Part shown: one piece after another, positions 3,085 through 17,231 of the stretch | Numbering within the stretch: position 1 is the first letter of the stretch | Layout of the letters: every line of letters begins with the position of its first letter | DNA from: Candidatus Woesebacteria bacterium | Lineage (GTDB): Bacteria; Patescibacteriota; Microgenomatia; UBA1400; UBA12028 | Direction: 5' to 3' | Assembly (NCBI GenBank): GCA_040006915.1 | Contig: JBDTWD010000001.1 | Coordinates: 98,229-162,228 of the forward strand | Length of the DNA stretch: 64,000 nucleotides | Position numbers and translations under genes: made by a program | Notes under the pieces: generated by a model | Database searches by the model: none | Seen by the model: only the letters and a program-made list of their open reading frames with translations | What the model was told of the DNA's origin: nothing

Positions 3085-3103
3085 ATAGGTTCGCACATCC
3101 TCC
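3085..3103 (+). repeat. cassette-array repeat copy L1 (partial: first 19 nt only, ATAGGTTCGCACATCCTCC)
   Basis: Matches the first half of the consensus, then diverges. Starts immediately after the TAA of the HepT fragment. Confidence 0.6.
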
Positions 3104-3127
3104 CGTATTGCGTGCATACTAAGAGAA

Positions 3128-3598
3128 ATGAAAGGCTTGCCCAAACTTATTATTTCCGTCGTTGGCTGTGAGACTATCGGGTTCTTAGGAACACCGTTTA
3201 CCATCTCTGCCATTCCCACTTGGTACGTGACACTGAACAAACCATTCTTTGCTCCACCGAGTTGGATTTTTGGACCGGTCTGGACGATTTTGTACTTATT
3301 CATGGGAGTATCGTTGTACCTGATTTGGAAACAAGGCTATCAAAAAAAAAGAGTGAAGATTGCTTGTCTGTTTTTTCTGGCACAACTTGGTCTAAACTTT
3401 ATCTGGTCTCCAATTTTCTTTGGGCTACGAGCGCCACTGTTGGGATTAGTGGTGATTGTGGCAATGTGGGTGTTTATTGTGATGACGATGAGAAAGTTCT
3501 ATCCACTCTCAAAACCGGCATTCTATCTACTCGTACCGTATCTGCTGTGGGTGAGCTTCGCAACTCTGCTGAATGCGGCTATAGTTCTCTTAAATTAA
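3128..3598 (+). CDS. tspO: TspO/MBR family tryptophan-rich sensory protein
   Basis: 156 aa, 5 TM segments, Trp-rich. Hallmark motif WYxxLxKPxFxPPxWxFGPVWTxLY is present. Confidence 0.85.
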   Translation: MKGLPKLIISVVGCETIGFLGTPFTISAIPTWYVTLNKPFFAPPSWIFGPVWTILYLFMGVSLYLIWKQGYQKKRVKIACLFFLAQLGLNFIWSPIFFGLRAPLLGLVVIVAMWVFIVMTMRKFYPLSKPAFYLLVPYLLWVSFATLLNAAIVLLN

Positions 3599-3613
3599 TG
3601 AAAGGAAACATCT

Positions 3614-3997
3614 ATGACTGGATTTGTACAAAATATTGAAAAAATAACGCTAGCAAATGAGTATTTTCGGCAAGTTCTCTACACAGGTCAACACGCACAA
3701 CTGGTAGTGATGTCACTGAAACCACAAGAAGATATTGGAGTAGAGGTGCACGAAATTGTTGATCAATTCCTACGCGTTGAAGTGGGTGAAGGCAAAGTCA
3801 TTATGAATGGTGAAGAACATATTGTTACCGATGGTGACGCCTTTGTGGTTCCAGCCGGAACGCAACACAACGTCATCAATACGTCTTCGGAAAAACCTCT
3901 CAAACTCTACACAGTGTATTCTCCACCGCACCACAAGGATGGCACTGTACACAAAACCAAACAGGAAGCTGAAAGCGACAAAGAGAATCACTTATAA
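3614..3997 (+). CDS. cupin domain protein
   Basis: 127 aa with cupin motifs (GxxxxxHxHxxxxE-like region VEVHEIVDQF; second motif PAGTQHNVIN). Lies 15 nt downstream of tspO. Confidence 0.65.
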   Translation: MTGFVQNIEKITLANEYFRQVLYTGQHAQLVVMSLKPQEDIGVEVHEIVDQFLRVEVGEGKVIMNGEEHIVTDGDAFVVPAGTQHNVINTSSEKPLKLYTVYSPPHHKDGTVHKTKQEAESDKENHL

Positions 3998-4371
3998 ATC
4001 TGGTGTTTTTTGAATCAAGCAATTGCGAAATGATGTTGGCAAGTTCTCTGCATCGGTGAGCACATGCAAAAGTGGAATGAGATCAAGGAGCTACAAAAAA
4101 CTCTAACGTAAGTGATAGTTTAGCTGATGACTGTATGATTATTTGAAATGAAGTGTTCGTAAAATAAATGCGATAAATCTCTTTAATATTGAAGCTTCTG
4201 GAGATCGAGCCAAAACATATAGACTTGGGGATGATTCCGGTGGATTCGTTACTTCCGCAAATGTTTTGTTTCGTGGAGGAGTTTATCTGTGACCACGAGC
4301 TTCAGATTTCTTTTTATCGAAGATGCCGAATACTATTTTTTTGACATGGGTGAACACGACGAAATATATAA

Positions 4372-4407
4372 ATAGGTTCTGACATCCTCCAGCTCAAGTT
4401 TTGCAAA
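4372..4407 (+). repeat. cassette-array repeat copy L2 (ATAGGTTCTGACATCCTCCAGCTCAAGTTTTGCAAA)
   Basis: Full-length copy. Follows a 375-nt non-coding stretch after the cupin gene and abuts the stop (4408-4410) of the reverse-oriented gene 4408..5190. Confidence 0.75.
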
Positions 4408-5190
4408 TTAATCATCGAATGAAAGCAGATCGTCAATAGACAGAGAGTTTGGATCTTTCCCAAGTTTATTTACAATGTTGGCCCTAAGTATTTCACCTTC
4501 TTTCTCCATTTGAACGGTACCTTCTTCCAGTTCTTCTTGTGCCTGTCGATCTTCTACAGCCATCTCTTCCTCTGTAGGATTTGTGTTTTGTATACGCGTA
4601 AAGATAAATAAGCTGTCCCCTGAGATCTCACTTTTAAACTGTGTATTTGACTTGTCATCTGACAAAAAAGCGGCGGAAATAGCTGGGGCATTCTCAAAAA
4701 AGAGGTGTATGTCAGCGTTCATTTTTTCGTTTGAATTGCCTGTCACAATACCCACGCATTCAAAATCAGGATTAGAAGCAATATTTCTGGCATTCCATTG
4801 ATAATTATTTGCGAGTACGTATCCGCCAACTTTAAGTTGGAGTACGGCTCGTTGTTCATTGAAGGCAGCATTGCTCAAGACGACAATATCAAGTGGAGCG
4901 TCAGGTCTAAAAGCATCCACTGAAGCCACGTGAGTCTCAAACCCCTTTTGCTCCAGAGGAAGCAGGCCGTTCGGGTCAGTATCTACGTGTATAACTCGAG
5001 CGTTTGAAAAGAAATGCGCTACACTGACATCATTTGAACTGCCTGGATAGTAGATGACATCTGTTGATGGCTTGAAGTGGTTTATAAATTCCTGTAAAAA
5101 AGGCGCTGACAAATTGGTCGGATAAAACTCCTGCTCATTCGGTTCTGGCTGAACATCATATGATTTTTCACTCATGAATCTATTATACAA
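4408..5190 (-). CDS. hypothetical protein (acidic C-terminal tail)
   Basis: 260-aa ORF. It is the only unit gene oriented opposite to its flanking repeats. No recognisable motif. Confidence 0.5.
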   Translation of the reverse strand: MYNRFMSEKSYDVQPEPNEQEFYPTNLSAPFLQEFINHFKPSTDVIYYPGSSNDVSVAHFFSNARVIHVDTDPNGLLPLEQKGFETHVASVDAFRPDAPLDIVVLSNAAFNEQRAVLQLKVGGYVLANNYQWNARNIASNPDFECVGIVTGNSNEKMNADIHLFFENAPAISAAFLSDDKSNTQFKSEISGDSLFIFTRIQNTNPTEEEMAVEDRQAQEELEEGTVQMEKEGEILRANIVNKLGKDPNSLSIDDLLSFDD

Positions 5191-5252
5191 TAAAAAAGAA
5201 TCTACCCTAGAGTATTGGTCTTCTGAAAATACTCCTCCTACGCCCTACAACG

Positions 5253-5288
5253 TAGGTTCGGACATCCTCCAACTCAAGCCCCGCAAAA
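5253..5288 (+). repeat. cassette-array repeat copy L3 (TAGGTTCGGACATCCTCCAACTCAAGCCCCGCAAAA)
   Basis: Full-length copy, preceded by the small inverted repeat CCTACG..CGTAGG. Confidence 0.75.
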
Positions 5289-5332
5289 CCTTTTTCCTCG
5301 AGTGAAATCCTCTTTTCTTTAAAATCCTACGC

Positions 5333-5361
5333 TTGACACTGTGTAAGTGAGTATATACAAT
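5333..5361 (+). promoter_or_regulatory. sigma70-like promoter upstream of brnT (TTGACA-17-TACAAT)
   Basis: TTGACA 5333-5338, 17-nt spacer, TACAAT 5356-5361. ATG at 5368 implies a very short or leaderless 5' end. Confidence 0.4.
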
Positions 5362-5367
5362 TAATCT

Positions 5368-5658
5368 ATGATTAGCTTAAAGGAACCTGTTGAATTCGAA
5401 TGGGATGAGGCAAATCAGGATAAAAACTGGAAAAAACATAAAGTTTCTATCTCAGAAGCGGAAGAAGTCTTTTTAGATAAGAGAAAAAAGATCTCAAAAG
5501 ATTTTTTCCATTCAGAGACTGAGGATCGATATATTCTAATTGGGATGACAAAAAGTGAAAGAGCGTTATTAGTCATATTTACTAGACGGAAAGATAAAGT
5601 GAGGGTTATCTCAGCGAGAGATTTGAATAAAAGGGAGCAGTTCTTATTACATATATAG
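5368..5658 (+). CDS. brnT: BrnT family toxin (DUF497 RNase)
   Basis: 96 aa with FEWDExKxxxNxxKH and the C-terminal RVISAR motif typical of BrnT. Confidence 0.75.
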   Translation: MISLKEPVEFEWDEANQDKNWKKHKVSISEAEEVFLDKRKKISKDFFHSETEDRYILIGMTKSERALLVIFTRRKDKVRVISARDLNKREQFLLHI

Positions 5659-5666
5659 GGAGTTTT

Positions 5667-5930
5667 ATGAAGAAAAAACTTGTGTTGCCCCATTTTAAAA
5701 ATGAAGATGATGAGAGAGACTTCTGGGCGAAAATAAACTTGGCTGATTATTTTGATCCTAGCGATTTTCAACCAGTGTCTTTTCCAAATCTAAAGCCAAC
5801 CTCAAAATCAGTTTCAATCCGAATTCCTGAATTTCTCTTGAATAGGATAAAAGAGGAGGCAAATCAGATAAACGTCCCTTATCAATCTCTTATTAAAAGC
5901 TCACTACAAGACAGATTTTTAAGTAAATAG
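5667..5930 (+). CDS. brnA: BrnA family antitoxin (RHH-like)
   Basis: 87 aa with the EDDERDFW...DYFDPSDF...IPEFLLNRIKEEANQINVPYQSLIKSSL pattern of BrnA. Starts 8 nt after brnT. Its TAG stop (5928-5930) is the first 3 nt of repeat L4. Confidence 0.7.
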   Translation: MKKKLVLPHFKNEDDERDFWAKINLADYFDPSDFQPVSFPNLKPTSKSVSIRIPEFLLNRIKEEANQINVPYQSLIKSSLQDRFLSK

Positions 5931-5963
5931 GTTCGAACATCCTCCAACTCAAGCCTTGCAAAC
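5928..5963 (+). repeat. cassette-array repeat copy L4 (TAGGTTCGAACATCCTCCAACTCAAGCCTTGCAAAC)
   Basis: Full-length copy overlapping the brnA stop codon. Confidence 0.75.
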
Positions 5964-6005
5964 GGGGTCTTTTCATGTAGATACCTCTGATATACTCCGA
6001 TATAT

Positions 6006-6614
6006 ATGAAATCAATGAATCAAAAAGTAAAAGAAGGTTACAACCGAGCGGCTAACGCTTATTCAAATAAGTTTCGTGATCAATTCAAAAGTAACCGTCA
6101 CCTAGACATGCTGATTCAGAAGTTGGAAAAGGGTTCAACCATTGTAGATATTGGATGCGGGAGCGGCGCACCCATCGATGCATATTTAGTACGACATGGA
6201 TTTGCAGTGACAGGTATCGACATTTCAGAAGAGCAAATCAAGCTTGCAAAGGAAAATGTTCCTGAGGCAACCTATGAAGTAATGGATATGTCTGATCTTA
6301 AAAAAGAGCAATTTCAGGTCGATGCCGTGGTGTCATTCTATGCATTGTTTCATATTCCACGTGAACAGCATTTGCATGTAGTGCAACTCATGAGGTCTTT
6401 CCTGAGACCGAACGGGTTACTACTCATTACTATGGGAGCGAGTGAGTGGGAGGGAAAAGATGATGACTTTTGTGGTACTGAAATGTATTGGAGTCATTTT
6501 GGTGTTGAGCAGAATAAAGAGCTTATTACTACAGCAGGATTTTCAATCTTATTTGATGAGATTGATACGACAGGAGATGAAAAACATCTCATTGTTCTTG
6601 CGAGGGCGGTATAG
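6006..6614 (+). CDS. class I SAM-dependent methyltransferase
   Basis: 202 aa. Motif I VDIGCGSGAP, motif II acidic residue (GIDISEE) and motif post-I AVVSFYALFH are present. Confidence 0.75.
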   Translation: MKSMNQKVKEGYNRAANAYSNKFRDQFKSNRHLDMLIQKLEKGSTIVDIGCGSGAPIDAYLVRHGFAVTGIDISEEQIKLAKENVPEATYEVMDMSDLKKEQFQVDAVVSFYALFHIPREQHLHVVQLMRSFLRPNGLLLITMGASEWEGKDDDFCGTEMYWSHFGVEQNKELITTAGFSILFDEIDTTGDEKHLIVLARAV

Positions 6615-6704
6615 TCTTGTCCAAAAAGATGGGCATTTGCATTTTCCACTCATCCCTGCATCCATGAGATATGAAAGTGTTTTCCGTTCGGTGAGTCATG
6701 AATC

Positions 6705-6929
6705 CTACAAATGAGTGAGATGTTCTTTTATGAGTGCTCCTGCAGTAGGAGAGACAGCAAGTTTGTATTTCGTATCAACCTCATCAAAGGGAACAAAGCC
6801 TACCCATTCCGTACGTGGATCTGTTGGTGTCCCTCTATCACTAGTCATCTCTGCTTGATAATACATTTGTAAGGATTGATGAAAGCCTGTCTTTGGGTGA
6901 TAGAACCAATCCACGACAGAAAACAGCAA
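6705..6929 (-). pseudogene. NUDIX hydrolase C-terminal fragment (likely remnant)
   Basis: The 74-aa ORF resembles only the C-terminal region of Nudix proteins (EWVGFVPFDEV...). No Nudix box is present upstream. Confidence 0.3.
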
Positions 6930-6941
6930 TTGTCCGTATTT

Positions 6942-7259
6942 TTATTTTCGAACTCTGCTTACTTCAAGTAGATTGAATATCGTCCACATCAACCAATTCC
7001 CACAATCAATTTGAGCCCTGCTCTCACCCAAACTTTTTCTTTCTCTTATTTTATCTTCGACAAGTTCCACTCCTCTTTTATATGCATCGTCTTCTGTATC
7101 CCCATCCTTGAGAGCACTCCTCCCTAAAACTTCAAATGCTAAATCAAGAAAAGCAGGGTCTGCATCATAAGGGGCACCATCAATTCCTCTTCCACCTGCC
7201 CAATATGAAGCTTCCTCAACCTGTTTTGCTGTTTGAATAAGTTCCTCTCGTCTAATCAT
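6942..7259 (-). CDS. hypothetical protein
   Basis: 105-aa acidic ORF in the hinge between the two repeat blocks. No motif. Confidence 0.4.
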   Translation of the reverse strand: MIRREELIQTAKQVEEASYWAGGRGIDGAPYDADPAFLDLAFEVLGRSALKDGDTEDDAYKRGVELVEDKIRERKSLGESRAQIDCGNWLMWTIFNLLEVSRVRK

Positions 7260-7347
7260 TATGCGATTATATCAAAATAGATCAGAGGGACGGAAGGAAT
7301 AAGTTCAAAATAGGACCTATTTTTGAATAACGTATCAATTTAATTCT

Positions 7348-7395
7348 TAGGTTCGAGCCTACTTTGCAGGGCTTAGTAGAGGACGTCAGAACCTA
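7348..7395 (-). repeat. cassette-array repeat copy R1, extended form (coding strand TAGGTTCTGACGTCCTCTACTAAGCCCTGCAAAGTAGGCTCGAACCTA)
   Basis: Terminal inverted arms TAGGTTC...GAACCTA. The distal arm AGGTTCGAGCC equals the T-arm of tRNA-Val at 63.8 kb. The first 3 nt are the TAG stop of gene 7393..7662. Confidence 0.75.
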
Positions 7396-7662
7396 CATGT
7401 TATGCAGTGCATAATTCTGAAGGAGTGTTCCATACATGAGAAAAGTCTCCGCTTCATCTAGTCCTACTTGTGAAGTCTTACTCACTTCTTTTGCAATGTC
7501 TTTTATATACTGTTTTTCAGCAACTAGTTCTAGTCGAGAAGACCATCGCTTTGCCTCAATTAAAAACTTATTAGCTGCGGTATGTGATCCTCGCTGCTTT
7601 AAACTTGCAATACGATATAAGTCATTTGATAGTGAACCAACAAGCATCTGGACATCGGTCAT
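7393..7662 (-). CDS. hypothetical protein, downstream member of an overlapping two-gene pair (possible toxin)
   Basis: 89-aa helical ORF. Its start overlaps the stop of 7659..7997 as ATGA. The stop lies within repeat R1. Confidence 0.45.
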   Translation of the reverse strand: MTDVQMLVGSLSNDLYRIASLKQRGSHTAANKFLIEAKRWSSRLELVAEKQYIKDIAKEVSKTSQVGLDEAETFLMYGTLLQNYALHNM

Positions 7663-7997
7663 AGAATCTCGCTAAAGAAAAATTCAGTTAATTTTTTATA
7701 TTCCTCACGCAATTTTTCGCTCTGAATTTCATTTTTCGTATTGTTATCTCTAGGTCGGATATTAATAAATGAGTTAAAATCTATCTCCTTTGTTTCAAGA
7801 TCTATGCCTCCACCCCAAATCATATGCTGATCTGACCCTTGTTCTAGAAGAATTTGTTCGCCCTCAAAATGTCTATTCATTCCAGAACTACACACTTTAT
7901 TTTCAACATCGATAACAGTTTTTATATACACTTCAAACTGCTCTTTTAACTGCTCAATCTCTTCAGGAGTAAATGGACTGGTCTTTGTGATTATCAT
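7659..7997 (-). CDS. hypothetical protein, upstream member of the two-gene pair (possible antitoxin)
   Basis: 112-aa acidic ORF with a 4-nt overlap to the downstream gene. Confidence 0.45.
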   Translation of the reverse strand: MIITKTSPFTPEEIEQLKEQFEVYIKTVIDVENKVCSSGMNRHFEGEQILLEQGSDQHMIWGGGIDLETKEIDFNSFINIRPRDNNTKNEIQSEKLREEYKKLTEFFFSEIL

Positions 7998-8040
7998 TAC
8001 CAGGATGATAGCAAAAGAACTATAAAGAAGGAATGTGTGT

Positions 8041-8063
8041 TTAGTAGAGGACGTCAGAACCTA
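8041..8063 (-). repeat. cassette-array repeat copy R2 (truncated: TTAGTAGAGGACGTCAGAACCTA; lacks the TTTGCAGGGC half)
   Basis: Matches the GGACGTCAGAACCTA half exactly. Confidence 0.7.
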
Positions 8064-8099
8064 TTTCAACAATTTCCAATGCCTAACTCTTGTTTAAAA

Positions 8100-8942
8100 T
8101 TATCTATTTTTTGAGATTGAAATTGTGGCAGTTGCATAAAAAATTGCATCTTTCGAGTTATATTGAGGAATGGAAAATAATTTATCATCGTAAAACTTTA
8201 TTTTCATTTTTGTTGGCTGGTTCATAGGCTGATGTCTTCCTTTAACTAAATAATAAACCCATTCATCGTCTGCCCAATATGTTGTTACTAGAACCAACTT
8301 TCCCAGTTGTAGTGCAATTTTATAAGAGTTATCCCCTCCTTTTTTAAGTTCACTCTCTGTTATAGTGTTATCAATCCCCATCCATAGAGAATTGTTCTCA
8401 AGATGACTATATCGTTTACTAGGTTCGTGCATTGTGGCCGTAACTAACACATGCTCAGGAATCTTACCTTCATAGAGTAGATTGTAGTGTTCAGGAGGAA
8501 CCACTTTAAAGTAGTTAGTGGCACTATTTAAAACGATTGATGTCTTGAACGTCCACTTTGTAATTAAATCTTTCTCAGATTGAGAAAGATTAATTATTTC
8601 CCTGCTACCCCTAATTAATGGCTTAAGTATATCTAAAGTAGTATCTTCAAGTAATTTCATCCACCCACCATTACAATATCCACATACACCACCTGCTAGA
8701 AAACTGTTCATGAATTGAAAATCTCTTTCTTCAGTGTTTTTATCTTCAAGTGGGCTATAGACGGTCAAACTTATTCGCAAGTTTTCAATGCCGAGATATG
8801 TAATTAACCAATGAGGGATCACATGTTCTTTTTTTCTATTAGACTTACCTAGTTTGCAATTACAAAATAGACATGTAGACCTATCTTCTCTTTCTTTTGG
8901 CTTTGTACTGGAGTGGAGATACTTTTCATCTACGAGTGGCAT
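8100..8942 (-). CDS. HNH-motif protein (CxxC...EHVIPHW...CxYCN) with an uncharacterised C-terminal domain
   Basis: 280-aa ORF. The N-terminus (CLFCNC, KEHVIPHWL, CGYCNGGW) resembles an HNH endonuclease zinc-finger core. The rest has no assignable motif. Confidence 0.5.
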   Translation of the reverse strand: MPLVDEKYLHSSTKPKEREDRSTCLFCNCKLGKSNRKKEHVIPHWLITYLGIENLRISLTVYSPLEDKNTEERDFQFMNSFLAGGVCGYCNGGWMKLLEDTTLDILKPLIRGSREIINLSQSEKDLITKWTFKTSIVLNSATNYFKVVPPEHYNLLYEGKIPEHVLVTATMHEPSKRYSHLENNSLWMGIDNTITESELKKGGDNSYKIALQLGKLVLVTTYWADDEWVYYLVKGRHQPMNQPTKMKIKFYDDKLFSIPQYNSKDAIFYATATISISKNR

Positions 8943-9051
8943 AATTTATTATTATAGAATTGTTGAACCTTGTTTTGAATACTTCGAAGAATATAGATGT
9001 AATACATGGAGAAATTGTGGTTCACTACAATTATGAACGAAAGTGAACTAA

Positions 9052-9086
9052 TTGTAGCAGGGCTTAGTGGAGGACGTCAGAACCTA
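9052..9086 (-). repeat. cassette-array repeat copy R3 (TTGTAGCAGGGCTTAGTGGAGGACGTCAGAACCTA)
   Basis: Full-length copy. The flanking hairpin GGTTCAC...GTGAAC lies at 9021-9051. Confidence 0.75.
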
Positions 9087-9101
9087 TCTAACCGCTAAAT
9101 A

Positions 9102-9881
9102 TTACACTAGCTGATCTAGTCCTTCTTTTATTTCTTCAAGAGAGTGAGAGTTCTCAAATTCTGACTTCGACTTCCAATCATGATTTCCGATAAAGGTTCC
9201 AAAAATTGATTTTTTCCATTTCTTCTCATCAAATCCTCGTGTATTTGTATACGTGTTGTAAACAGATTCGATCAACGTGGTAACCAAATGAACATAAGCG
9301 TTTCTGACAAATTCTAGTCGCTCTTGGACTTCGTCGGTTTTTACTTTTTCCAATCTATCAGGAGAGCCAAAATCAACATGCAGGTTCTCGCTAGAGCCGA
9401 TGTCTTTATCTGCAACAAAATCGTGTGCACCATCTAAGTCAATCTGCCATACCTTTCCACTTCGATCTACTAGCATGTGCCCTGGAGTACGTTCTCCCGC
9501 ACTCATTCCCATCGATAGAACGGCATTTAGTTCTGAAACAACTTGCTTTAGTGCTGACAACGATTGTGAATATCCAGCTTCTTGTATGTACGATTCTAAA
9601 TTTGGACCATCAATTTTCTTCACAGGGAAAGAATTTGTATATCTAGCCTCTTCCCTAAATCGCGCCATTTTTGTAACAACTATTGGAGGAACGAAATCAA
9701 AGAGATCAGCAAGAATGACGTGAAGATATTCTCTCTCACCTAAGCCTGAGGGATCTCCTATCTCCTCATGTATTTCAATAGGTTCAGCGGATGAGTCGTA
9801 TTTGATTTCTCGTTGAAGTTCTTTTTTGTCACGTCTAAAGTATGAAGCTATATCTCGGAAGGCCATGAAATTACTATACAC
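9102..9881 (-). CDS. protein-kinase-like fold protein (APH/Kdo-kinase-like catalytic loop), putative
   Basis: 259 aa. PGHMLVDRSGKVWQIDLDGAHDF resembles the HxDxxxxN...DFG catalytic segment of small-molecule kinases. The N-lobe is not recognisable. Confidence 0.4.
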   Translation of the reverse strand: MYSNFMAFRDIASYFRRDKKELQREIKYDSSAEPIEIHEEIGDPSGLGEREYLHVILADLFDFVPPIVVTKMARFREEARYTNSFPVKKIDGPNLESYIQEAGYSQSLSALKQVVSELNAVLSMGMSAGERTPGHMLVDRSGKVWQIDLDGAHDFVADKDIGSSENLHVDFGSPDRLEKVKTDEVQERLEFVRNAYVHLVTTLIESVYNTYTNTRGFDEKKWKKSIFGTFIGNHDWKSKSEFENSHSLEEIKEGLDQLV

Positions 9882-9971
9882 TTACTCAGTGGGAATCAAA
9901 ATTATGAGAAATACGAACCGATAACCTGGATTTGAAAAGCTTTTTTAGATTGATTCATCAAACTATTAGAA

Positions 9972-10004
9972 TTTGCAGGGCTTAGTGGAGGACGTCAGAA
10001 CCTA
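9972..10004 (-). repeat. cassette-array repeat copy R4 (TTTGCAGGGCTTAGTGGAGGACGTCAGAACCTA)
   Basis: Canonical full-length copy. The TAA stop of gene 10006..10329 is 1 nt away. Confidence 0.8.
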
Positions 10005-10005
10005 C

Positions 10006-10329
10006 TTATTTGCTAGGTATTCTCTTTGAGAGATGACTTGAAAGAATAGCTGGAACTACAAAAATGATTAGTACAAATACAAACCATATCCCATACACCA
10101 CAAGTGGTGTATAGAGATACTCATCTCCGATTACTCTAACCCCGTTTACACTATGAACAAAAGGTGCAATAAAACCGACGAAAGGCAATGGGTCGATACA
10201 TTTATATAATATTCCATTCGCCCAGTTGCTCCAAGAAAAAGATAGCACCAGAAGTAGTGGAACAAAGAAGAAGATATATAGAACAACCGACTGAAGTCTT
10301 ACGTATTGGTCGTGGAGTTTTTTAACCAT
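10006..10329 (-). CDS. small integral membrane protein
   Basis: 107 aa with three predicted hydrophobic helices. Confidence 0.45.
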   Translation of the reverse strand: MVKKLHDQYVRLQSVVLYIFFFVPLLLVLSFSWSNWANGILYKCIDPLPFVGFIAPFVHSVNGVRVIGDEYLYTPLVVYGIWFVFVLIIFVVPAILSSHLSKRIPSK

Positions 10330-10356
10330 ATGCAGATTATAACAAAGTCCTAACTT

Positions 10357-10439
10357 TAGGTTCGATTCCTTATAGACCTAAGGAGATTTGACTCGAGTAA
10401 AAAGTTGAAGCAGGGCTTGGTGGAGGACGTCAGAACCTA
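10357..10439 (-). repeat. cassette-array repeat copy R5, extended (TAGGTTCGATTCC... + GTTGAAGCAGGGCTTGGTGGAGGACGTCAGAACCTA)
   Basis: The core lies at 10404-10439. The distal segment 10357-10369, TAGGTTCGATTCC, is a near-canonical tRNA T-arm/T-loop sequence. Confidence 0.7.
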
Positions 10440-10450
10440 TTTTATTGTTT

Positions 10451-10711
10451 CTAATACTCATCGTGCGTAATAATATCGGTCAAGAGTAATCCTTCTCCTA
10501 TCACCACAAAAGTTATCCGTAGATCACCTTCCAACCAAACAGCATACTCAGTTTTTCTTGAGCCTTTTAATTTATGAGTTTTAAGAGATGGATGGTGAAT
10601 ATTTTGAACTAATAGCTTTAATTGCTTGCTCACTTTTTGTCTCAACTGAGGATTTTTGTCTATTCTTTTTTTGAGTCTTTTCTTGAAATAATCCGAATAA
10701 CTTAGTTTCAT
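10451..10711 (-). CDS. RelE/YafQ-family mRNA interferase toxin
   Basis: 86 aa with HPSLKTHKLKG...YAVWL..DLRITFVV...LLLTDIITHDEY, characteristic of RelE/YafQ. Confidence 0.65.
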   Translation of the reverse strand: MKLSYSDYFKKRLKKRIDKNPQLRQKVSKQLKLLVQNIHHPSLKTHKLKGSRKTEYAVWLEGDLRITFVVIGEGLLLTDIITHDEY

Positions 10712-10986
10712 AAATCATTCAGAAATTCATCAACCTCATCATGTTTGATCTGATGAGTTTTACCTTGAGAGTAATCTTCTAGTGCTTGATCTAACACCTT
10801 TTCAGTTTTTTCACTCATTTTGAAAACTGGCATATCTATATCTTTCACATCAACTAGCACTAGATGTTTAATGTAAGTAGAAATGGACAAACCATATTGA
10901 TCAGCTCTACTCTGGACAAGTTCTTGCAACTTCTCTGGCAAAGTAATTTTTATTTGGGCTGATGGATTAGCAATAATTGTAGACAT
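10708..10986 (-). CDS. ribbon-helix-helix antitoxin (DinJ/RelB-like)
   Basis: 92 aa with an N-terminal RHH (ITLPEKLQELVQSRADQYGLSISTYIKHLV). Its stop overlaps the toxin start (ATGA). Confidence 0.6.
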   Translation of the reverse strand: MSTIIANPSAQIKITLPEKLQELVQSRADQYGLSISTYIKHLVLVDVKDIDMPVFKMSEKTEKVLDQALEDYSQGKTHQIKHDEVDEFLNDL

Positions 10987-11037
10987 AGTACTATTTTAGT
11001 CCCTTTTTAGTCCTTTTTCAAGTACTGAACAGCCATA

Positions 11038-11064
11038 GAGCTTAGTAGAGGACGTCAGAACCTA
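11038..11064 (-). repeat. cassette-array repeat copy R6 (truncated: GAGCTTAGTAGAGGACGTCAGAACCTA)
   Basis: Same truncation type as R2. The last 3 nt are the TAG stop of gene 11062..12030. Confidence 0.7.
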
Positions 11065-12030
11065 TTTCGCTAAAGATTCGGTTGTACTTGGCCTGTAATG
11101 TGGGAATAGCTTTTTCACCTCCCCATCTGAAATCTCTTTTTTTACATGGTAGACCGTAGCCTGATTTTTACCTCTATTCAGGCTAAGCAGACATGACTGG
11201 AGGTCGTTATATTTATCAAGCAATTTTTGATATGCATCTGCCCTCCTATCAAAATCAGGGGTGTGATACTGCATAGCCACGGGTACAAGTTCACGACCAA
11301 CCCAGTAAGCCTGCAATTCCTTTAGCCATAGTGGGAGAGATTCATCTTCATCATCCTGATGGATATGGACTATCTCATGAAGTACCATATTTAACCAGGT
11401 AGCTTTCTCAACAAATTTCTTTGCTTTTTCAATACTTCCCTCTTCTCGCATGAGTGTTTCTCTATTTTGTTCACTTATATTTTCCCAAGTTTCTATGGGT
11501 ATACCTATCACAAAACTTCCTTCTGAGTTGTATGCTCTAAACGTCCCTACCTCATCTTCTGGGATGTATGAAGCGCTTTCCGATTTTAGTCTAGATTTAA
11601 AAAAGTTCTCAAACTTTCTTCGATCAATCTCGGGAATTCCTGAGAGCCACTGTTCTAAATTTGCTTCAGTCAAATCGGTGGCATTTTTACCTTTTTCCTT
11701 TATAAATGTCGAGTAAGATTCCACAATCACCTGTGGAGTTACTTCTTCACTGTCTTTTTCAGCAATAGTGTCTAACTTCCAGTTTGACGTAAATGCTTTC
11801 ATTGTCTCAGGATCTACTAGAACAAAGCGTTTTTTCATCTCATCAAGCGGGATCATTTCACGCTGAGAAAATAGTTTTTGAAATTTAGCAATGAAAAGTG
11901 AATACGCCTCTCCCACAACCTCCTCAAACTCTTTTGCTTTCTCTGGAGATACGGATTGAGCCTCCATTCGCAAGGCATCCAGCTCATCAGCAGATAGGGA
12001 GAAAGAATTTGAACTAGCGTTTTCGGACAT
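11062..12030 (-). CDS. HExxH-motif protein (putative zincin-like metallopeptidase)
   Basis: 322-aa acidic ORF with HEIVHIHQDDED. Confidence 0.45.
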   Translation of the reverse strand: MSENASSNSFSLSADELDALRMEAQSVSPEKAKEFEEVVGEAYSLFIAKFQKLFSQREMIPLDEMKKRFVLVDPETMKAFTSNWKLDTIAEKDSEEVTPQVIVESYSTFIKEKGKNATDLTEANLEQWLSGIPEIDRRKFENFFKSRLKSESASYIPEDEVGTFRAYNSEGSFVIGIPIETWENISEQNRETLMREEGSIEKAKKFVEKATWLNMVLHEIVHIHQDDEDESLPLWLKELQAYWVGRELVPVAMQYHTPDFDRRADAYQKLLDKYNDLQSCLLSLNRGKNQATVYHVKKEISDGEVKKLFPHYRPSTTESLAK

Positions 12031-12078
12031 ACTATTAGTGAGTATACCAAAAATATTAGGGGCGGAAGGAATGAAAGC

Positions 12079-12112
12079 AGGTTCGAGCGTAAAATGCAGG
12101 GCCTAAATGAGA
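12079..12112 (-). repeat. cassette-array repeat copy R7 (degenerate: AGGTTCGAGC + AAATGCAGGGCCTAAATGAG; lacks GGACGTCAGAACCTA)
   Basis: Partial match only. Probably the array terminus. Confidence 0.45.
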
Positions 12113-12144
12113 GCGCATTAGCTCAAAAGTACTTTATCGAAAAA

Positions 12145-12708
12145 TCAGAATGGATATCCCTTTAAACCTTGGATTCCTTTGAGTACGGCAATTTCTCCCA
12201 TGATCGAATAGGCGTGTCCATTTATGATGTTGGCGATGAAGTCATACATTTTTTTGTTTCCCATGCCAAATGCGCTCATATCTACTTCTTTCTCAAGGTC
12301 TGCTTCAGAAAGCGTGGCGACGTACTTTTCCGTTTCTTCGTACACGGACTTGGCATACAGGCGAAATTTCTGTACATCCAAGCGAACTTCTCGCAGCCAG
12401 ATGGGATATTCAGTTTGCCAATCGGTTGGTTGGATTTTACTGGCACCGGTGTTGTCCTTAAAAGTTGTTTCGAATAGTGTCGGAGTTTTCATCAAAAAAG
12501 TATGCACAAACATATCTTCACTAAAGACCAAATGAGCATACACTCCGGCAATTGGGTTGGCAGTCCCTGGAGGCATAAACTGTGCCACTTCATCAGTCAC
12601 ACCAGTCATGGTGTCTTCCAGTGCAGTGTGAGTAGCCTGCAGCTGAGTAACTAAAATTTCGGTTCCAAGATTTTTCATAGATCTCCTGTAGAGTACAAAG
12701 CATTTCAT
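12145..12708 (-). CDS. DinB/YfiT-like (DinB_2) metal-dependent four-helix-bundle protein
   Basis: 187 aa with the C-terminal INGHAYSIMGEIAVLKG, typical of the DinB_2 family. Confidence 0.6.
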   Translation of the reverse strand: MKCFVLYRRSMKNLGTEILVTQLQATHTALEDTMTGVTDEVAQFMPPGTANPIAGVYAHLVFSEDMFVHTFLMKTPTLFETTFKDNTGASKIQPTDWQTEYPIWLREVRLDVQKFRLYAKSVYEETEKYVATLSEADLEKEVDMSAFGMGNKKMYDFIANIINGHAYSIMGEIAVLKGIQGLKGYPF

Positions 12709-12862
12709 TACGTAAATTGGCTTGAGATGATTTTACCCGTTTCAAGAGCTTGATACAAATTTTCGTTTTCGACTCGTTTGAGCTAGTTTATTACCAGGAG
12801 TATTCATGCAGTCAGAATAGCAAAGGTTCTCGTCTGTTATACCAAACTTTCAGTATTCCATT

Positions 12863-12988
12863 CGGGGTCTTGCCCCTCTTTTACAAGGGTTTCCGGGCTA
12901 TGCCCTCCAATGAACGTCGTTTCACTCCGCCCTTGTAAAATTCACCCCGCTGTTTAAGAGACAGATATGGGAGGCATGCACGCCTCCC
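12863..12988. repeat. nested inverted-repeat / hairpin cluster at the array boundary
   Basis: Outer pair CGGGG 12863-12867 / CCCCG 12945-12949. Inner perfect 11-bp pair TTTTACAAGGG 12879-12889 / CCCTTGTAAAA 12930-12940. Separate hairpin GGGAGGC-ATGCAC-GCCTCCC at 12969-12988. No U-tract follows. Confidence 0.6.
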
Positions 12989-13028
12989 AATCAAAAAGTA
13001 TAAAAATGAGGCGTGAAGAAAGGACGAT

Positions 13029-13325
13029 ATGAAACTGGTATCCAAGGAGCTTGAAGCCCTCTTTGCACAAGTGGGGTCACAGGAGAATGTGGCAGATCCA
13101 ATTGTGATTGCGAAGTTTTTCAATCCCACAGGATCTGGTACGTGGTATGCAACCGAGTATGACGCATCTGAAGGGCGGTTTTTCGGCTATGTGTCTATCT
13201 TTGGCGACTGGAATGACGAATGGGGATATTTTTCTTTAGCAGAGCTACAAAGCTATGTGGGAAGACTGGGCTTGGGGATCGAACGAGATCTGTATTTTAC
13301 GCCCAAGCCATTCTCGAAAATTTAA
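13029..13325 (+). CDS. DUF2958-like protein (family common on conjugative plasmids)
   Basis: 98 aa with WYATEYDASEGRFFGYVSIFGDWNDEWGYFSLAEL...ERDLYFTP, recalled as DUF2958. Confidence 0.5.
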   Translation: MKLVSKELEALFAQVGSQENVADPIVIAKFFNPTGSGTWYATEYDASEGRFFGYVSIFGDWNDEWGYFSLAELQSYVGRLGLGIERDLYFTPKPFSKI

Positions 13326-13652
13326 ATATATATAGGAGACATTTATGATCAATCCCATCGTAACGCGCGAATTTGAAAACCAAATTTTAGAACTCATTGA
13401 CACTCAAGAGGACTATACCCGAGGTGATTTGCAAGGAATGGTGACCGTATTGGTGAACAAAATAATGGAACGAGGGCACGAGATTTTACAAACCCAGGAG
13501 AAATGAGCGATATGCACTGAAAACAAGTGATTTTTTCACTGGTGCGTTGAAGTACGTCGTGGGGTACTAGTTGGTATTGTATAATATCGAGGCGACACTA
13601 CCCAAACGGGAGTGGAACGTAGAAATGAGGCCACAGACACTGGAGGTGCAAA

Positions 13653-14174
13653 ATGGCCGAGTTAGTGAAGAGAGAAGACTTTCAAAAGCTTCTCACGGTT
13701 CGTCAACTCATCGACGAAATGATCGAGCTTGACGAAAAAGTTTTAGCGAATGGCGGCGGATTCCGACAGAGAGAATTTAGCTCTTCTCAGGTGGGATCCA
13801 TAAATGCCGTTCTTCGTGAGACACGTCCGCATTCTTTGTATATCGTTGGATTTGAATTCGACGTGAGCGAAGTCGGGGACGTGGTCGATGTGTCAGTTGC
13901 CAACACAGAAGCAACTGATATCGTACTCAATGCTGCATTGGGAGTGAAGAACTCCTGGGAATCGCCGATGCAGACGCTAACGATTCCCGCTGAGGGTGAG
14001 ATTACTTTTCGTTTTCCCATCCCAGTAAGACTGAAGGAAAGAGAGGTGTGCTTTCACTTTAGTGGAATGATGAGTGCGCTGCGGGACATTCACGTCCAGT
14101 ATTGCGCTGATCAAATGCTACCTCCTCTCCCTCCTGAAAAGAAACCGCGAGGTTTCAAGGAGAACAAAAAGTAA
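13653..14174 (+). CDS. hypothetical protein
   Basis: 173-aa ORF with no motif. Confidence 0.45.
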   Translation: MAELVKREDFQKLLTVRQLIDEMIELDEKVLANGGGFRQREFSSSQVGSINAVLRETRPHSLYIVGFEFDVSEVGDVVDVSVANTEATDIVLNAALGVKNSWESPMQTLTIPAEGEITFRFPIPVRLKEREVCFHFSGMMSALRDIHVQYCADQMLPPLPPEKKPRGFKENKK

Positions 14175-14302
14175 GCAGTAATGAGTCGTGGTTGGGGGAT
14201 CCTCGTCCCCCAACCACAAAACCATTTTTCCAGATGGGTGAATTTGAAACCGTATCCGCGTCATCTATTCACTTCTCTACCTCAAACCGATTTGTTTTGA
14301 TC

Positions 14303-16285
14303 CTACCGCTTTTCAATTTCAGATTTAAACTCCACTGCGAAGACGTGTGCCATTCCGCTCTCAATTCCTTCTTGTGCAAGTATTCGTACTTGTCTATTTA
14401 AGCGAATTGCCCAGACTGTTTTGTTTTCTCTAGGCCCGTCAAATCCGGGATATGTTTTGACCAGTCCCGCACCCTTATTGGCCTGAAGTAATTTTTGTTC
14501 GATGCGTTGAATGTCGGAATCATTAAATTTTTCCCGTAATGTACGAACTGTATCTTCCGGGAATACAAATTCAGGCCACAATCTTTTCTCTCGGATTTCT
14601 TCAGCAAAAGTTTTTGACTTTCCTGATTGCTGTTTTTGTGGTTCCAATGACTGTACCACTGTATAATTTTGTTGTCTTTTATGTTCGCCTCTTTCCGTTT
14701 TGGCTTTCCCTTTTTGTCTCATTGGGGCAACGTCATATGAATTAACTCGAGAAATCATGTTTTCGGCAGGTGTTGGGGTATATAGTCTCTCATTCTTTAT
14801 CCGAACAGTGTTATCAAGTAATTGATGGATGAGTGAAAGCGTCTGAGCCTGGAGTGATTCATCAACAGCTTCTTCATCTAACAAACGTAAATAAATTGCT
14901 GGATGGTCAGCGTGAAGATCTATTGCTAAGGTTGTCAAAGAAAACGGCATACTATTCTCCATTGACAAGTGTTCGAGCTCCTCTTCGTTGTGAATAAAAA
15001 ACAATTGTACAAAAAGAATGTCATCATCTTTTTTTACTCGAGCCGTTACGAAGTCTGTTGGGACTGATAAGTGTACTTGATCAAGTTTTGCGAGTGAAAC
15101 CCAACTATCAGAAATCGAAAGTTCAGCAGCGAATGCTCGTATTTCCTGCCACTGTTGTGTCGACCACTCTTGTTTCTCGCCAAAAAGAGCAGCCAGTTGA
15201 TCAGATGAGCAAATAACTACTTTGGAAACTGATTGAACAGTGCCTTTCATATTTTCTGCAAGGTCAAAATACCACGAATCGTTCGTATCTTCTGCAATAG
15301 TATATAAGTTTTTTATAAGGACGAGCTCATCGACGACATTCATTATCCCCCGCTTTACGGCTCCTAAACCGAAATACTGTCGTTTCTCTTCTCGACTACC
15401 TACAATCGCTGGTGACTCGATAAAATCTGTTACAAACTGACGGCTGGCTAGATGTTTTGGATCCTCATCATCTGTAAGTGCGTTATATGTCTGCAAAATG
15501 AAGTCTGAAAAGAGATGGTACATCCTTTTTGTGAGAGCCTTTTCTTTATTTTCTTTAAAATATTTTTTGTAGATTTGCTCAAACTCATAATCGTCCATCG
15601 CAACAAAACCTTTTACAAATATTCCCAAGTAAAAGCTCTCACTCTGCTGAAAAACTTCATGTAAAAGCGTGCTCATTACTTGGTACCGAGCATCGCTAGA
15701 ATTGTCTCCCTCTGTTTCAAGATCAAGAGCCAGTTTTTTGAGAACTGCGAACACTGGCATATATGCCTCTATATCCTCATACGCATCGGACTGCTTGAAA
15801 AAAGATGGAACCGGAATGCGTGCCCATTCTGTAATTTCACGTACGACATTTTGATCAAAATCGACAACGTCTGATCTATGGAGTTGTTTGATAATATCGT
15901 GTCCACTATCGGCTACACGAATATGGGCGTTAAATAACCGAACTATCCATTCTTGAATAGCTGTCTTTCCAATGGGATTTTCTCCATCTTCTAGTCCTGG
16001 CATATTACCTATTAATTCGTATTTTTCAATATTCCATCGGGCGAGTGTCCCCACGAGACCTCCGATATTTTTCACACCGAGTGAACGTGATTGAAGGATA
16101 AACGATCTGGCTCCTTGCTCTAAGTATCGTCTCTCGGGGAGTTCTTCTTGTGCAGTTTCAAATGAAGCAATGTCTGGAAGTTTATATGACCCGTCTGGGT
16201 TTTTTTCAATCTCTATTGGAATAGGAGAAGCAGTGGGCTCACCCACATACAGTGCACGGCTTAATTTAAATTCTCTTTCTTTCAT
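14303..16285 (-). CDS. large hypothetical protein (660 aa); the C-terminal ~60 aa faintly resemble a RelE/ParE fold
   Basis: Long uninterrupted ORF. C-terminal TVWAIRLNRQVRILAQEGIESGMAHVFAVEF is weak. Confidence 0.5.
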   Translation of the reverse strand: MKEREFKLSRALYVGEPTASPIPIEIEKNPDGSYKLPDIASFETAQEELPERRYLEQGARSFILQSRSLGVKNIGGLVGTLARWNIEKYELIGNMPGLEDGENPIGKTAIQEWIVRLFNAHIRVADSGHDIIKQLHRSDVVDFDQNVVREITEWARIPVPSFFKQSDAYEDIEAYMPVFAVLKKLALDLETEGDNSSDARYQVMSTLLHEVFQQSESFYLGIFVKGFVAMDDYEFEQIYKKYFKENKEKALTKRMYHLFSDFILQTYNALTDDEDPKHLASRQFVTDFIESPAIVGSREEKRQYFGLGAVKRGIMNVVDELVLIKNLYTIAEDTNDSWYFDLAENMKGTVQSVSKVVICSSDQLAALFGEKQEWSTQQWQEIRAFAAELSISDSWVSLAKLDQVHLSVPTDFVTARVKKDDDILFVQLFFIHNEEELEHLSMENSMPFSLTTLAIDLHADHPAIYLRLLDEEAVDESLQAQTLSLIHQLLDNTVRIKNERLYTPTPAENMISRVNSYDVAPMRQKGKAKTERGEHKRQQNYTVVQSLEPQKQQSGKSKTFAEEIREKRLWPEFVFPEDTVRTLREKFNDSDIQRIEQKLLQANKGAGLVKTYPGFDGPRENKTVWAIRLNRQVRILAQEGIESGMAHVFAVEFKSEIEKR

Positions 16286-16383
16286 TGAGTGATAGTACTA
16301 TATTTTTTATATTTGGCAAATATCTTGCCCTAGTCACGAACAGGTGTTTTGAATTCTTCTGAAAATGATTTATAATCCCGGGA

Positions 16384-17142
16384 ATGAGAAAAGAACTGTG
16401 TGCATATTGCGTCACTTGGCAAAAATGTTTTTATGAGGATATCTCTCTCAACGGTTTGCAGCAAGCTCTCGAACATGGAAATACTACAAACTGTCCACAG
16501 TTCCCTTCTTTATTGGCAGAAGCCCTAGATCCAGGCACCATTTCTTCGCCTGAAGAAAGTATTGTATCCGTCGTTGAACAGTCTCCTCTTGAAACGGTTG
16601 AAACCATGATTCCACAAGCTGAGGATATAGAAAAAATCATTGACAACACTCCTCCAATAGAGGGAGAAATTCCCAAGCCTCGCATGATAGAAACAATTAT
16701 TTTTAAACGTCTACCGACTAAACGAGAGACAGTTCAGGTAAAAACAAATGGGAAACAAAGGGACATCACAAACGGCAAGGCTGAAAAAGGTGCTGGTACT
16801 CCCAAACGATCCACAGTAAGCATTTCGTTACGTGAATATATTGATGTGCAGGATTATCTTGCTCAAACCGATGTATCTGAACGTCTAAGGAGTGCATTTG
16901 GATACATTACAGAGGCAATTGACAAGTTAGGGAAATATACACAGGATCTCGACTACAAAGAGAAAGAGAGGCTAGGGAAAATTATTACAAGAATTCTTGA
17001 AACGAACGATGTGTTTGAAGATTATGAGGAAGCGCTACATTTCTTGAAAGCTCTAAAAGGAATCGTTACCGTTTGGACTGTGAATACAAAGGGCAAGAAC
17101 AGAAATGAAATTCAAAAATTTGACCTGAATGGATCTACTTAG
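16384..17142 (+). CDS. hypothetical protein with an N-terminal Cys pair
   Basis: 252-aa ORF containing CAYCVTWQKC. Confidence 0.45.
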   Translation: MRKELCAYCVTWQKCFYEDISLNGLQQALEHGNTTNCPQFPSLLAEALDPGTISSPEESIVSVVEQSPLETVETMIPQAEDIEKIIDNTPPIEGEIPKPRMIETIIFKRLPTKRETVQVKTNGKQRDITNGKAEKGAGTPKRSTVSISLREYIDVQDYLAQTDVSERLRSAFGYITEAIDKLGKYTQDLDYKEKERLGKIITRILETNDVFEDYEEALHFLKALKGIVTVWTVNTKGKNRNEIQKFDLNGST

Positions 17143-17231
17143 TAATTTTTTAACTGAAAATATACAGAATGAAACGCCCACTGCATGTATTGATTTGGTA
17201 ATCAACCACACAGTGGGCTTCTTTAGCACCT

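Follow-up and report, generated by a model that had tools for sequence, protein, structure and literature searches.

Convergent arrays of small gene units closed by a tRNA-like site in Candidatus Woesebacteria, a possible integron-independent cassette system

The stretch considered here, 64,000 nucleotides (nt) of a Candidatus Woesebacteria genome (NCBI GenBank assembly GCA_040006915.1, contig JBDTWD010000001.1, positions 98,229 to 162,228; "the window" below), carries near its left end two facing blocks of small gene units, most of them followed by a copy of a short repeat. An earlier reading, made from the sequence alone, took these for a cassette array of the integron type, such as a cluster of attC sites lacking an integron-integrase (CALIN). 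We favour, with modest confidence, another account: two convergent arrays of small mobile cassettes of one or two genes, serially inserted at tRNA-like 3' ends by a putative recombinase encoded elsewhere.

The repeat and its gene units in the window

The core of the repeat, an 18-nt head (TAGGTTCKRACRTCCTCY), occurs ten times in the window at up to three mismatches (shuffled sequence gives 0.34), always inside 3086-11064. Four copies lie on the + strand and six on the - strand, where the upper coordinates in Table 1 are the 5' ends. The + strand sites are called L1-L4 and the - strand sites R1-R7; three-digit labels (L026, L101, L149 and so on) denote related loci in other genomes. An nhmmer profile built from the ten copies recovers those ten only from the 64 kb (E = 2e-12 to 2e-7; next best 1.8), and the other 52 kb, with about 45 genes, hold none. 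Within the window, therefore, the repeat is not a dispersed element of the repetitive extragenic palindromic (REP) kind, and the many unrelated intergenic copies that the sequence-only reading had named as a sign against itself were not seen outside the arrays. All the copies it listed are present where it placed them, the one at 12079-12126 (R7) with a qualification: it is a degenerate relative of R1 (81% identity to 7349-7375 over 27 nt) and goes unscored by the profile. With two additional partial tails that have no head, at 5231-5250 and 6642-6661, it makes three degenerate remnants.

The spacing of 0.43-1.29 kb, the head-only form of L1, the altered tails of R2 and R6 and the inverted arms on R1 and R5 had all been described correctly, as had the orientation of the units, each of one or two genes running in the direction of its own site, with the gene at 4408-5190 as the exception. 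The claim that every copy lies at or within a stop codon was too general. The gap from stop codon to head ranges over 0-37 nt: it is 0-2 nt in five copies (L1, L4, R1, R4 and R6) and 11-37 nt in R2, R3 and R5, while L3 sits after the start side of the inverted gene and no open reading frame (ORF) of at least 50 amino acids (aa) terminates at L2. Among R1, R3, R4 and R5 conservation breaks off right after GCCCTGC, and no terminal inverted repeats were found around the units.

The cargo, as classified with Pfam, is of the accessory type: toxin-antitoxin pairs, in which the array is rich, TspO, a cupin, a methyltransferase and unknowns. All 16 intact cassette ORFs are free of internal stop codons, and in three units (those of BrnT, of the ribbon-helix-helix protein and of the 280-aa ORF) a promoter-like site, a consensus match only, lies between site and gene. 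The G+C content of the arrays is 0.36-0.39 and that of the rest of the window 0.41-0.45; this remainder is ordinary chromosome, with genes for aminoacyl-tRNA synthetases, histidine biosynthesis, G6PD/6PGD, a penicillin-binding protein, IF-3 and EF-P. The histidyl-tRNA synthetase agrees at 100% identity with an NCBI protein from a Candidatus Woesebacteria MAG, which makes the host a CPR bacterium (candidate phyla radiation). As the sequence-only reading had said of tyrosine recombinases, neither a tyrosine nor a serine recombinase was found in the window (Pfam over the ORFs; phmmer with IntI1 and XerD). PHROGs and NCBIfam gave no match for the unannotated ORFs adjoining the arrays. No tRNA gene adjoins the window arrays either: at default settings ARAGORN finds none at the sites, and with introns allowed and the threshold lowered it makes spurious calls only, in the arrays.

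Table 1. Features of the two blocks, in window coordinates
Feature	Coordinates	Strand	Remarks
Truncated HepT-like (HEPN toxin) fragment, 41 codons	2959..3084	+	Pfam E = 1.1e-8, profile positions 86-117 of 120; final coding piece ahead of L1
Site L1	3086..3103	+	Head only, tail replaced
TspO/MBR gene (3128-3598) and cupin gene (3614-3997)	3128..3997	+	Pfam
Site L2	4373..4407	+	Head and tail ...GTTTTGCAAA
260-aa ORF	4408..5190	-	No family match (Pfam, PHROGs, NCBIfam); sole unit gene in opposite orientation
Headless tail remnant	5231..5250	+	ACTCCTCCTACGCCCTACAA; abuts L3
Site L3	5253..5287	+	Head and tail ...GCCCCGCAAA
Promoter-like TTGACA-17-TACAAT	5333-5361	+	Downstream of L3
BrnT toxin (5368-5658) and CopG/BrnA antitoxin (5667-5930)	5368..5930	+	Pfam E = 1.2e-23 and 5e-27
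Site L4	5928..5962	+	Its TAG is the antitoxin gene stop codon
S-adenosylmethionine (SAM)-dependent methyltransferase	6006..6614	+	Pfam; final unit of + block
Degenerate tail remnant	6642..6661	+	TTTTCCACTCATCCCTGCAT; closes + block
Two small ORFs (74 and 105 aa)	6705..7259	-	No family match; final unit of - block
Site R1	7348..7395	-	Head and tRNA-Trp-type tail 7363-7395; inverted T-arm-like arm 7348-7362
DUF5674 gene (7659-7997) and 89-aa partner (7393-7662)	7393..7997	-	
Site R2	8040..8063	-	Head and replaced tail (ACACACATT)
280-aa cassette ORF	8100..8942	-	No Pfam match; promoter-like site 8979-8951
Site R3	9054..9086	-	Head and tail GCCCTGC
259-aa cassette ORF	9102..9881	-	No family match
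Site R4	9972..10004	-	Copy nearest the consensus
107-aa cassette ORF	10006..10329	-	No family match
Site R5	10356..10439	-	Head and tail 10407-10439; about 27 nt on, inverted canonical T-arm/acceptor-like fragment 10356-10380 (on +: TTAGGTTCGATTCCTTATAGACCTA)
YafQ-like toxin (10451-10711) and ribbon-helix-helix antitoxin (10708-10986)	10451..10986	-	Promoter-like site 11021-10993
Site R6	11035..11064	-	Head and diverged tail GCTCTAT; the 322-aa gene stops at its TAG
322-aa cassette ORF	11062..12030	-	No family match
R7, degenerate array-proximal site	12079..12126	-	Diverged head, GGCCCTGC, inverted arm GCTCGAACCT; starts 18 nt past the DinB stop codon
DinB-family gene	12145..12708	-	Pfam DinB_2 E = 4.5e-11; proximal border of - block

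The site family and tRNA 3' ends

Species-representative genomes were scanned with a degenerate 17-nt pattern for the head, the tail being left unconstrained. Most hits were chance single matches; about 40 loci are real, with arrays in metagenome-assembled genomes (MAGs) named Saccharibacteria, Levyibacteriota, Paceibacterota, Minisyncoccia, Adlerbacteria, Roizmanbacteria, Curtissbacteria, Nealsonbacteria and others. A metagenome scan with a pattern that required a CCCTGC tail gave 41 loci with 59 sites, several of them from 0.1-µm groundwater filtrates. Two or more sites occur in 47 other loci, which belong to the candidate phyla radiation (CPR/Patescibacteria) where the taxon is named. There, adjacent sites are co-oriented in 109 cases and opposite in 7, the spacing has a median of 679 nt (interquartile range 536-1006), and arrays reach eight sites per 8 kb. 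The head is kept over its 18 nt across lineages with more than a dozen CPR candidate-phylum names. Some MAGs labelled "uncultured Pseudomonadales" or "Gammaproteobacteria" carry the same arrays as CPR genomes (L101, L090/L072, L039/L084, L045, L050); these taxonomic labels may be wrong. Two scans of viral contigs for a phage bearing an attP of this kind returned chance matches inside coding regions only, and full-text searches of the accessible literature turned up no description of the motif, of CPR integrons of this kind or of cassette arrays at tRNA-Trp.

A position matrix built on 187 non-redundant sites, drawn from 68 loci, has a conserved A at -3 and the head tAGGTTCkAACrTCCTCyA, then nine variable positions and, at +28/+29, a GC, past which conservation ends abruptly. 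The conserved A and GC were absent from the search pattern; the site is thus of constant length, about 33 nt, with a sharp 3' boundary. In many relatives the site is followed by a terminator-like hairpin and a T-run.

The nine variable positions lead to the link with tRNA genes. Arrays in the other loci usually follow closely on a tRNA gene. A tRNA-Trp(CCA) gene precedes the first site at short distance, on the same strand, in 13 loci, and among all tRNA-site pairs within 3.5 kb the site is downstream and co-oriented in 51, against 16 in all other arrangements. Site tails reproduce the 3' terminus of the neighbouring tRNA, whichever it is. For Trp, the tRNA ends in ...CGCCCCTGC and the site tail in ...AGCCCCTGC; the corresponding pairs are ...CACCCGCTCCA and ...ATCCCGCTCCA for Gly(gcc) in L108, ...CCTCTGGAC and ...GACTCTGGAC for Tyr in L115, ...GGGGGAGC and, in six site tails, ...TTCGGAGC for Asn in L044, and ...GCCCGCTC and ...TCTCGCTC for Gly(tcc) in L036. 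When the last 8 nt of the nearest upstream tRNA are compared with the tail, seven or more of eight positions agree in 12 of 33 pairs, against 23 of 1598 if the same sites are paired with tRNAs of other identity. The Gly, Asn and Tyr tails were not pre-selected, because they were found by the head-only scan.

The head in turn resembles a T-arm (GGTTCGAATCC in tRNAs, GGTTCkAACrTCC in the sites), and the conserved GC is the discriminator base and the next base, i.e. the mature 3' end of the tRNA. The distance from T-loop to end is 6 nt longer in the site than in a tRNA, so that the site is a tRNA mimic and not a gene fragment. A complete or permuted tRNA fold was also considered for it and rejected, the stems failing to pair. 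In the window, the tails of the - block read GCCCTGC, often followed by AAA, which is the tRNA-Trp type, and R4 is identical at 33 of 33 positions to a site downstream of a tRNA-Trp gene in L090. The signs of tRNA targeting are those of the relatives, where tails match Trp, Gly, Asn or Tyr and arrays lie downstream of the gene and co-oriented with it; the window arrays have no adjoining tRNA gene.

Two observations concern true tRNA sequence near such sites. Short genuine tRNA 3' fragments (e.g. GGTTCGAATCCTATCGCCGGAGCACC) follow some sites in L135 and L139. In L150 and L156 part of the tRNA-Trp gene is repeated in direct orientation about 60 nt beyond its end; the copy covers the 3' half, starting in the anticodon-loop region and reaching CCA, and is the classic footprint of an integration-excision cycle at tRNA-Trp.

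Crossover, mobility and a proposed route of capture

The position of the crossover is best seen in two loci, L121 and L149, that share synteny around an RNase HII gene, after which comes a tRNA-3'-like fragment (AAGGTTCsAATCCTTTCTCCCCTG). At this fragment L121 has a 4-kb array with at least three sites and L149 is empty. A three-way alignment shows the empty site to consist of the first L121 junction's left side, up to CCCCTG[C/A]A, joined to the right side of the last junction from AACATTTTTAA on; the switch falls inside CTG[A/C]A, and the junction sites have little homology in common beyond CTGA. A supporting comparison (L143/L142) finds the same spacer and inverted arm joined either to a tRNA-Trp gene or to a head-plus-tail. 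To judge from these alignments, strand exchange takes place in the tail, next to the head, and a cassette would therefore extend from just past one tail to the end of the next. Its layout is an optional hairpin and inverted arm, a promoter-like site in some units, the gene or genes, the head and the tail; the units have no integrase of their own.

Single units also recur in other company. The DUF5674 cassette of the window (7659-7997) is found in L101 with 86% aa and 78% nt identity; homology begins at the preceding site, the upstream gene differs, and the altered tail of R2 is common to both. A more distant DUF5674 copy, at 63% aa identity, lies in a Curtissbacteria contig (L069) among different neighbours and with its site in the opposite orientation. 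Together with the 47 other array loci and the filled/empty pair, the recurring cassette upholds the core of the sequence-only reading, that this is an array of small mobile units closed by recombination sites. A gene from the ordinary chromosomal part of the window (30391-30900, 169 aa) has a 37%-identical homologue that lies as a cassette between two sites in a Minisyncoccia locus (L030, 109-612). A further pair of loci, L140 and L148, differs by one additional gene lacking a second bounding site and is therefore uninformative on mechanism.

The account we favour runs as follows. A cassette circle with one site would recombine with one of three partners: the matching 3' end of a tRNA gene, a fragment resembling a tRNA, or a site already resident in an array. 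Strand exchange would occur within the 8-9 nt of the tail, exactly where the mature tRNA ends, and would thus spare the tRNA; the new cassette would be left closed by its own head-plus-tail. Repeated insertion would build co-oriented arrays, and excision between two sites would remove or reshuffle units. This would be conservative site-specific recombination by an enzyme encoded elsewhere, by analogy most likely a tyrosine recombinase of the tRNA-targeting type. We infer the circular intermediate, the recombinase class and the same origin for the window arrays, which do not lie beside a tRNA gene; the mechanism accounts for co-oriented arrays, intact tRNAs, the match of tail and tRNA, the sharp boundary of the site and the filled/empty pair.

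Several points weigh against this account. No recombinase was found in the window or in the related loci, and the catalyst is therefore hypothetical. One clean filled/empty pair, with one supporting comparison, is the basis for placing the crossover. Exact look-ups with cassette and flank proteins brought up Logan contigs of the source population only (SRR26386622, SRR26386599); these three contigs are 100% identical to the window, so that they show no cassette polymorphism. The metagenome scan pre-selected the tail type, though not the tRNA neighbourhood. Two different tail types (...ACGAGCCCCTGC and ...GTCYCTCCGAGC) occur within one array in L135 (1793, 2280) and L139 (6541), which is awkward if strand exchange needs strict identity of tails. 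A minority of sites have an inverted arm 40-81 nt downstream. These arms, the mixed-tail arrays and the convergent layout of the window arrays without an adjacent tRNA gene do not follow from the mechanism as it stands.

CPR bacteria have tiny genomes with few recognised mobile elements, and their gain and loss of accessory genes is poorly understood. We put forward, as a tentative proposal, that the ~33-nt sites, each a universal pseudo-T-arm joined to the acceptor end of a particular tRNA, direct serial capture of cassettes of one or two genes, some with a promoter of their own, at tRNA 3' ends and tRNA-like fragments by an unlinked putative recombinase. This would form a second, integron-independent cassette platform, widespread in CPR/Patescibacteria and a main route of their accessory-gene turnover. 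It could be counted as a distinct platform if a dedicated recombinase is found. If true, CPR bacteria would possess an integron-like evolvability device built on a different site logic, with toxin-antitoxin, stress-related and unknown genes as its cargo in the window. The combination of a constant head for protein recognition with a swappable tail of 8-9 nt suggests modular recombinase targeting, which would interest genome engineers when the enzyme comes to light. The 18-nt head also makes a simple probe for hypervariable regions, and for the assembly breaks that result from them, in CPR MAGs.

Some further features of the window lie beside the arrays. Logan contigs from SRR26386622 (L119, L161, L163) end at about window positions 3028, 7034-7055 and 11960 and near 2814, in or beside the arrays and in no case exactly at a site; these may be assembly breaks induced by the repeats. 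The 375 nt between the cupin gene and L2 contain no ORF of at least 50 aa in the cassette frame. In this stretch 4038-4063 duplicates a fragment of the cupin gene (81% identical to 3669-3694), and the 21 nt at 4160-4180 are 90% identical to 2905-2925, upstream of the HepT fragment; the similarities suggest a decayed duplicated unit at 4000-4372. The left flank (379-2765) is accessory too, with a G+C content of 0.374 and a carbamoyltransferase gene (379-2100) that has no homologue above 60% identity besides itself and clusters with methyltransferase genes reaching past the window start (Logan contig L163). On the other side, the - block is adjoined at 12750-26500 by genes of conjugative or mobilisable type: DUF2958 (13029-13325), Fic-MerR (17897-18883), Replic_Relax (18895-19758), a type IV secretion coupling protein (19800-22442), DUF2779 (22537-23976) and a PIF1-type helicase (24251-25909), with no integrase found among them. 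Five ORFs of this flank have no Pfam, PHROGs or NCBIfam family (14303-16285, of 660 aa, 13653-14174, 16384-17142, 17232-17630 and 25924-26487). The genes at 12.7-26 kb can be read as remnants of a conjugative element.

Alternative readings and known systems

The likeliest of the alternatives, though still unlikely, is that the units are what is left of larger elements (prophages, integrative and conjugative or integrative mobilisable elements (ICEs/IMEs), or elements like tycheposons) that inserted serially at a tRNA gene and decayed to a partial-tRNA att repeat and one or two cargo genes. Tandem insertion at tRNA genes is documented for the tycheposons of Prochlorococcus, multi-kb elements with hallmark genes that leave partial tRNA copies inside islands and between them (bioRxiv 10.1101/2020.12.28.424599). 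The true tRNA-Trp duplicates of L150 and L156 would fit such a history, as would the conjugative genes adjoining the - block (coupling protein, Replic_Relax, DUF2958, PIF1, Fic). Against it stand the uniformly small and compact units (median 679 nt over 109 intervals), the 16 intact ORFs of the window and the promoter-like site upstream of three units. By Pfam counts and phmmer no integrase gene or fragment was found among about 160 related loci, and an integrase of its own, otherwise a mark of tRNA-targeting elements, is absent from every unit, all of which measure 0.4-1.3 kb. The head, moreover, is not copied from the local T-arm; it is universal and 6 nt longer than its tRNA equivalent. No sites were seen on viral contigs.

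A divergent integron or CALIN, with attC sites that fold as single strands and an IntI encoded elsewhere, was the preferred interpretation of the sequence-only reading and appears to us quite improbable. The form of the units speaks for it: one or two genes followed by a co-oriented site, with many toxin-antitoxin genes. Within the head, GTTCTAAC, GTTCGAAC and GTTCTGAC resemble the R'' box RYYYAAC, and one subfamily of sites consists of head, tail, terminator-like hairpin and inverted head. A few sites form full imperfect palindromes of about 90-100 nt with unequal arms (R1, R5, L026 twice, L057 twice, L142 and the third site of L135); those of the related loci are true palindromes, their arms at a constant distance of about 71-81 nt.

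Against this stands the rest of the family. An inverted arm is clear in R1 and R5 only and weak in R7 and L3, leaving at least seven of the ten window copies without a partner arm. Of 180 sites, 15 have the first 10 nt of the head in inverted form (at least 8 of 10 matching) 25-160 nt downstream, and the controls gave 5 (upstream) and 9 (shuffled), so that such a partner is barely enriched. When the 11 site regions were folded as single-stranded DNA, a check that the sequence-only reading had proposed, R1 alone paired end to end (-7.0 kcal/mol, z = -1.67), and the other ten, with z-scores from -0.9 to +1.9, did no better than shuffled sequence. In L155 the inverted arm resembles the canonical head and not the local left arm, which argues against co-evolution of the two arms driven by base pairing. 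Inversion was rejected as a source of the head-to-inverted-head sites, since its geometry does not yield them. The crossover falls between head-plus-tail and the hairpin or inverted arm, in the tail and not at G|TT in a distal R' box, and the arrays of the relatives are anchored at tRNA genes whose 3' ends the tail copies. Short ORFs do precede the sites, as integron cassettes would have it, but in three units promoter-like sites (consensus matches only) lie between site and gene, which may be a departure from mostly promoterless cassettes.

The search for recombinases that had been proposed along with the folding was likewise negative. Pfam counts and phmmer with two query sequences, IntI1 and XerD, detected no intI in the window or the roughly 160 related loci, an approach by which very divergent recombinases could be missed. 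The phmmer matches fell in two unrelated loci only (L113 and L098), and Pfam searches of the pooled ORFs for a recurrent recombinase gave just two insertion-sequence-type rve transposases. The site beside an integrase in L112/L113 was rejected as a family member, being an unrelated local repeat without a tail, and identity with dif/Xer sites was rejected for want of any similarity. Neither intI nor attC structure nor a crossover in a distal R' box is thus in evidence, and what stands of the integron interpretation is its fallback, a divergent or undescribed cassette system.

There is a slim chance that no dedicated recombinase is involved and that the ~30-nt repeats serve as portable homology for RecA-dependent exchange after DNA uptake. 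DNA uptake is generally assumed for CPR bacteria, repeats inside one array are 85-100% identical over about 30 nt, and a recombinase was not found. Yet the L121/L149 junction sites have little homology beyond CTGA, and the site has a fixed length with a sharp end of conservation at +29. The tail follows the identity of the neighbouring tRNA, for four tRNA species, and the 18-nt head is kept across lineages, both of which argue for recognition by a protein and not for mere homology.

Very improbable is a cis-acting RNA or regulatory element of the 3' untranslated region without a role in mobility (a terminator, a processing or stability signal, or an element like REP or the bacterial interspersed mosaic element (BIME)): sites do follow stop codons directly, many relatives have the terminator-like hairpin and T-run, and the CCUCC in the site looks like an anti-Shine-Dalgarno sequence, but Rfam, whether searched with gathering thresholds or with E values as high as 10, matches none of the sites, a stable or conserved fold was not seen, the other 52 kb with their ~45 genes lack the element, the filled/empty polymorphism is bounded by sites, and cassettes are common to genomes with different neighbours.

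Serially inserted cassettes with tRNA-like sites invite comparison with several known systems. Integrons and CALINs are alike in their serial units of one or two genes with a co-oriented closing site, their cargo of toxin-antitoxin and unknown genes, a recombinase outside the unit, and the RYYYAAC-like heptamer. They differ in that attC sites are folded palindromes of 57-141 nt, whereas the sites here are mostly asymmetric and about 33 nt long; the attC crossover lies in the distal R' box (G|TTRRRY), here beside the head in a tRNA-mimic tail; integron arrays start at attI next to intI, those of the relatives at tRNA genes; and three cassettes here have promoter-like sites, with no IntI found. 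Tycheposons and other tRNA-targeting elements likewise insert at specific tRNA 3' ends, leaving the tRNA intact, with tRNA-like direct repeats between tandem insertions, the newest material beside the tRNA and a target tRNA that varies by lineage. Unlike tycheposons, the units described here are about 0.4-1.3 kb long, without integrase or replication genes, sit in CPR hosts at up to eight sites per 8 kb, and carry as repeat a universal pseudo-T-arm plus 8-9 nt of tRNA identity in place of a 40-nt tRNA copy.

The cis-mobilisable elements (CIMEs) related to ICESt1 and ICESt3 of Streptococcus thermophilus are integrase-less and att-bounded and accrete in tandem at one att site with the integrase acting in trans; only a few exist, each spanning several kb, and they arose from ICEs by deletion. 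The arrays described here share the integrase-less, att-bounded tandem units but consist of tens of minimal cassettes with one site family in many CPR lineages. The pdif modules of Acinetobacter plasmids are small, often encode toxin-antitoxin systems, and are bounded by 28-bp XerC/XerD sites in alternating inverted orientation on which a housekeeping recombinase acts. They resemble the present units as small toxin-antitoxin modules with short sites, whereas our sites are direct repeats with no dyad symmetry and no similarity to dif. REP, BIME and miniature inverted-repeat transposable elements (MITEs) are unlike the arrays, which have neither copies elsewhere in the window nor terminal inverted repeats around their units. 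In logic the system is closest to integron cassettes, with minimal units, a 3' site and the enzyme in trans, whereas its targeting has its nearest counterpart in the integrative elements directed to tRNA genes and the islands that these build.

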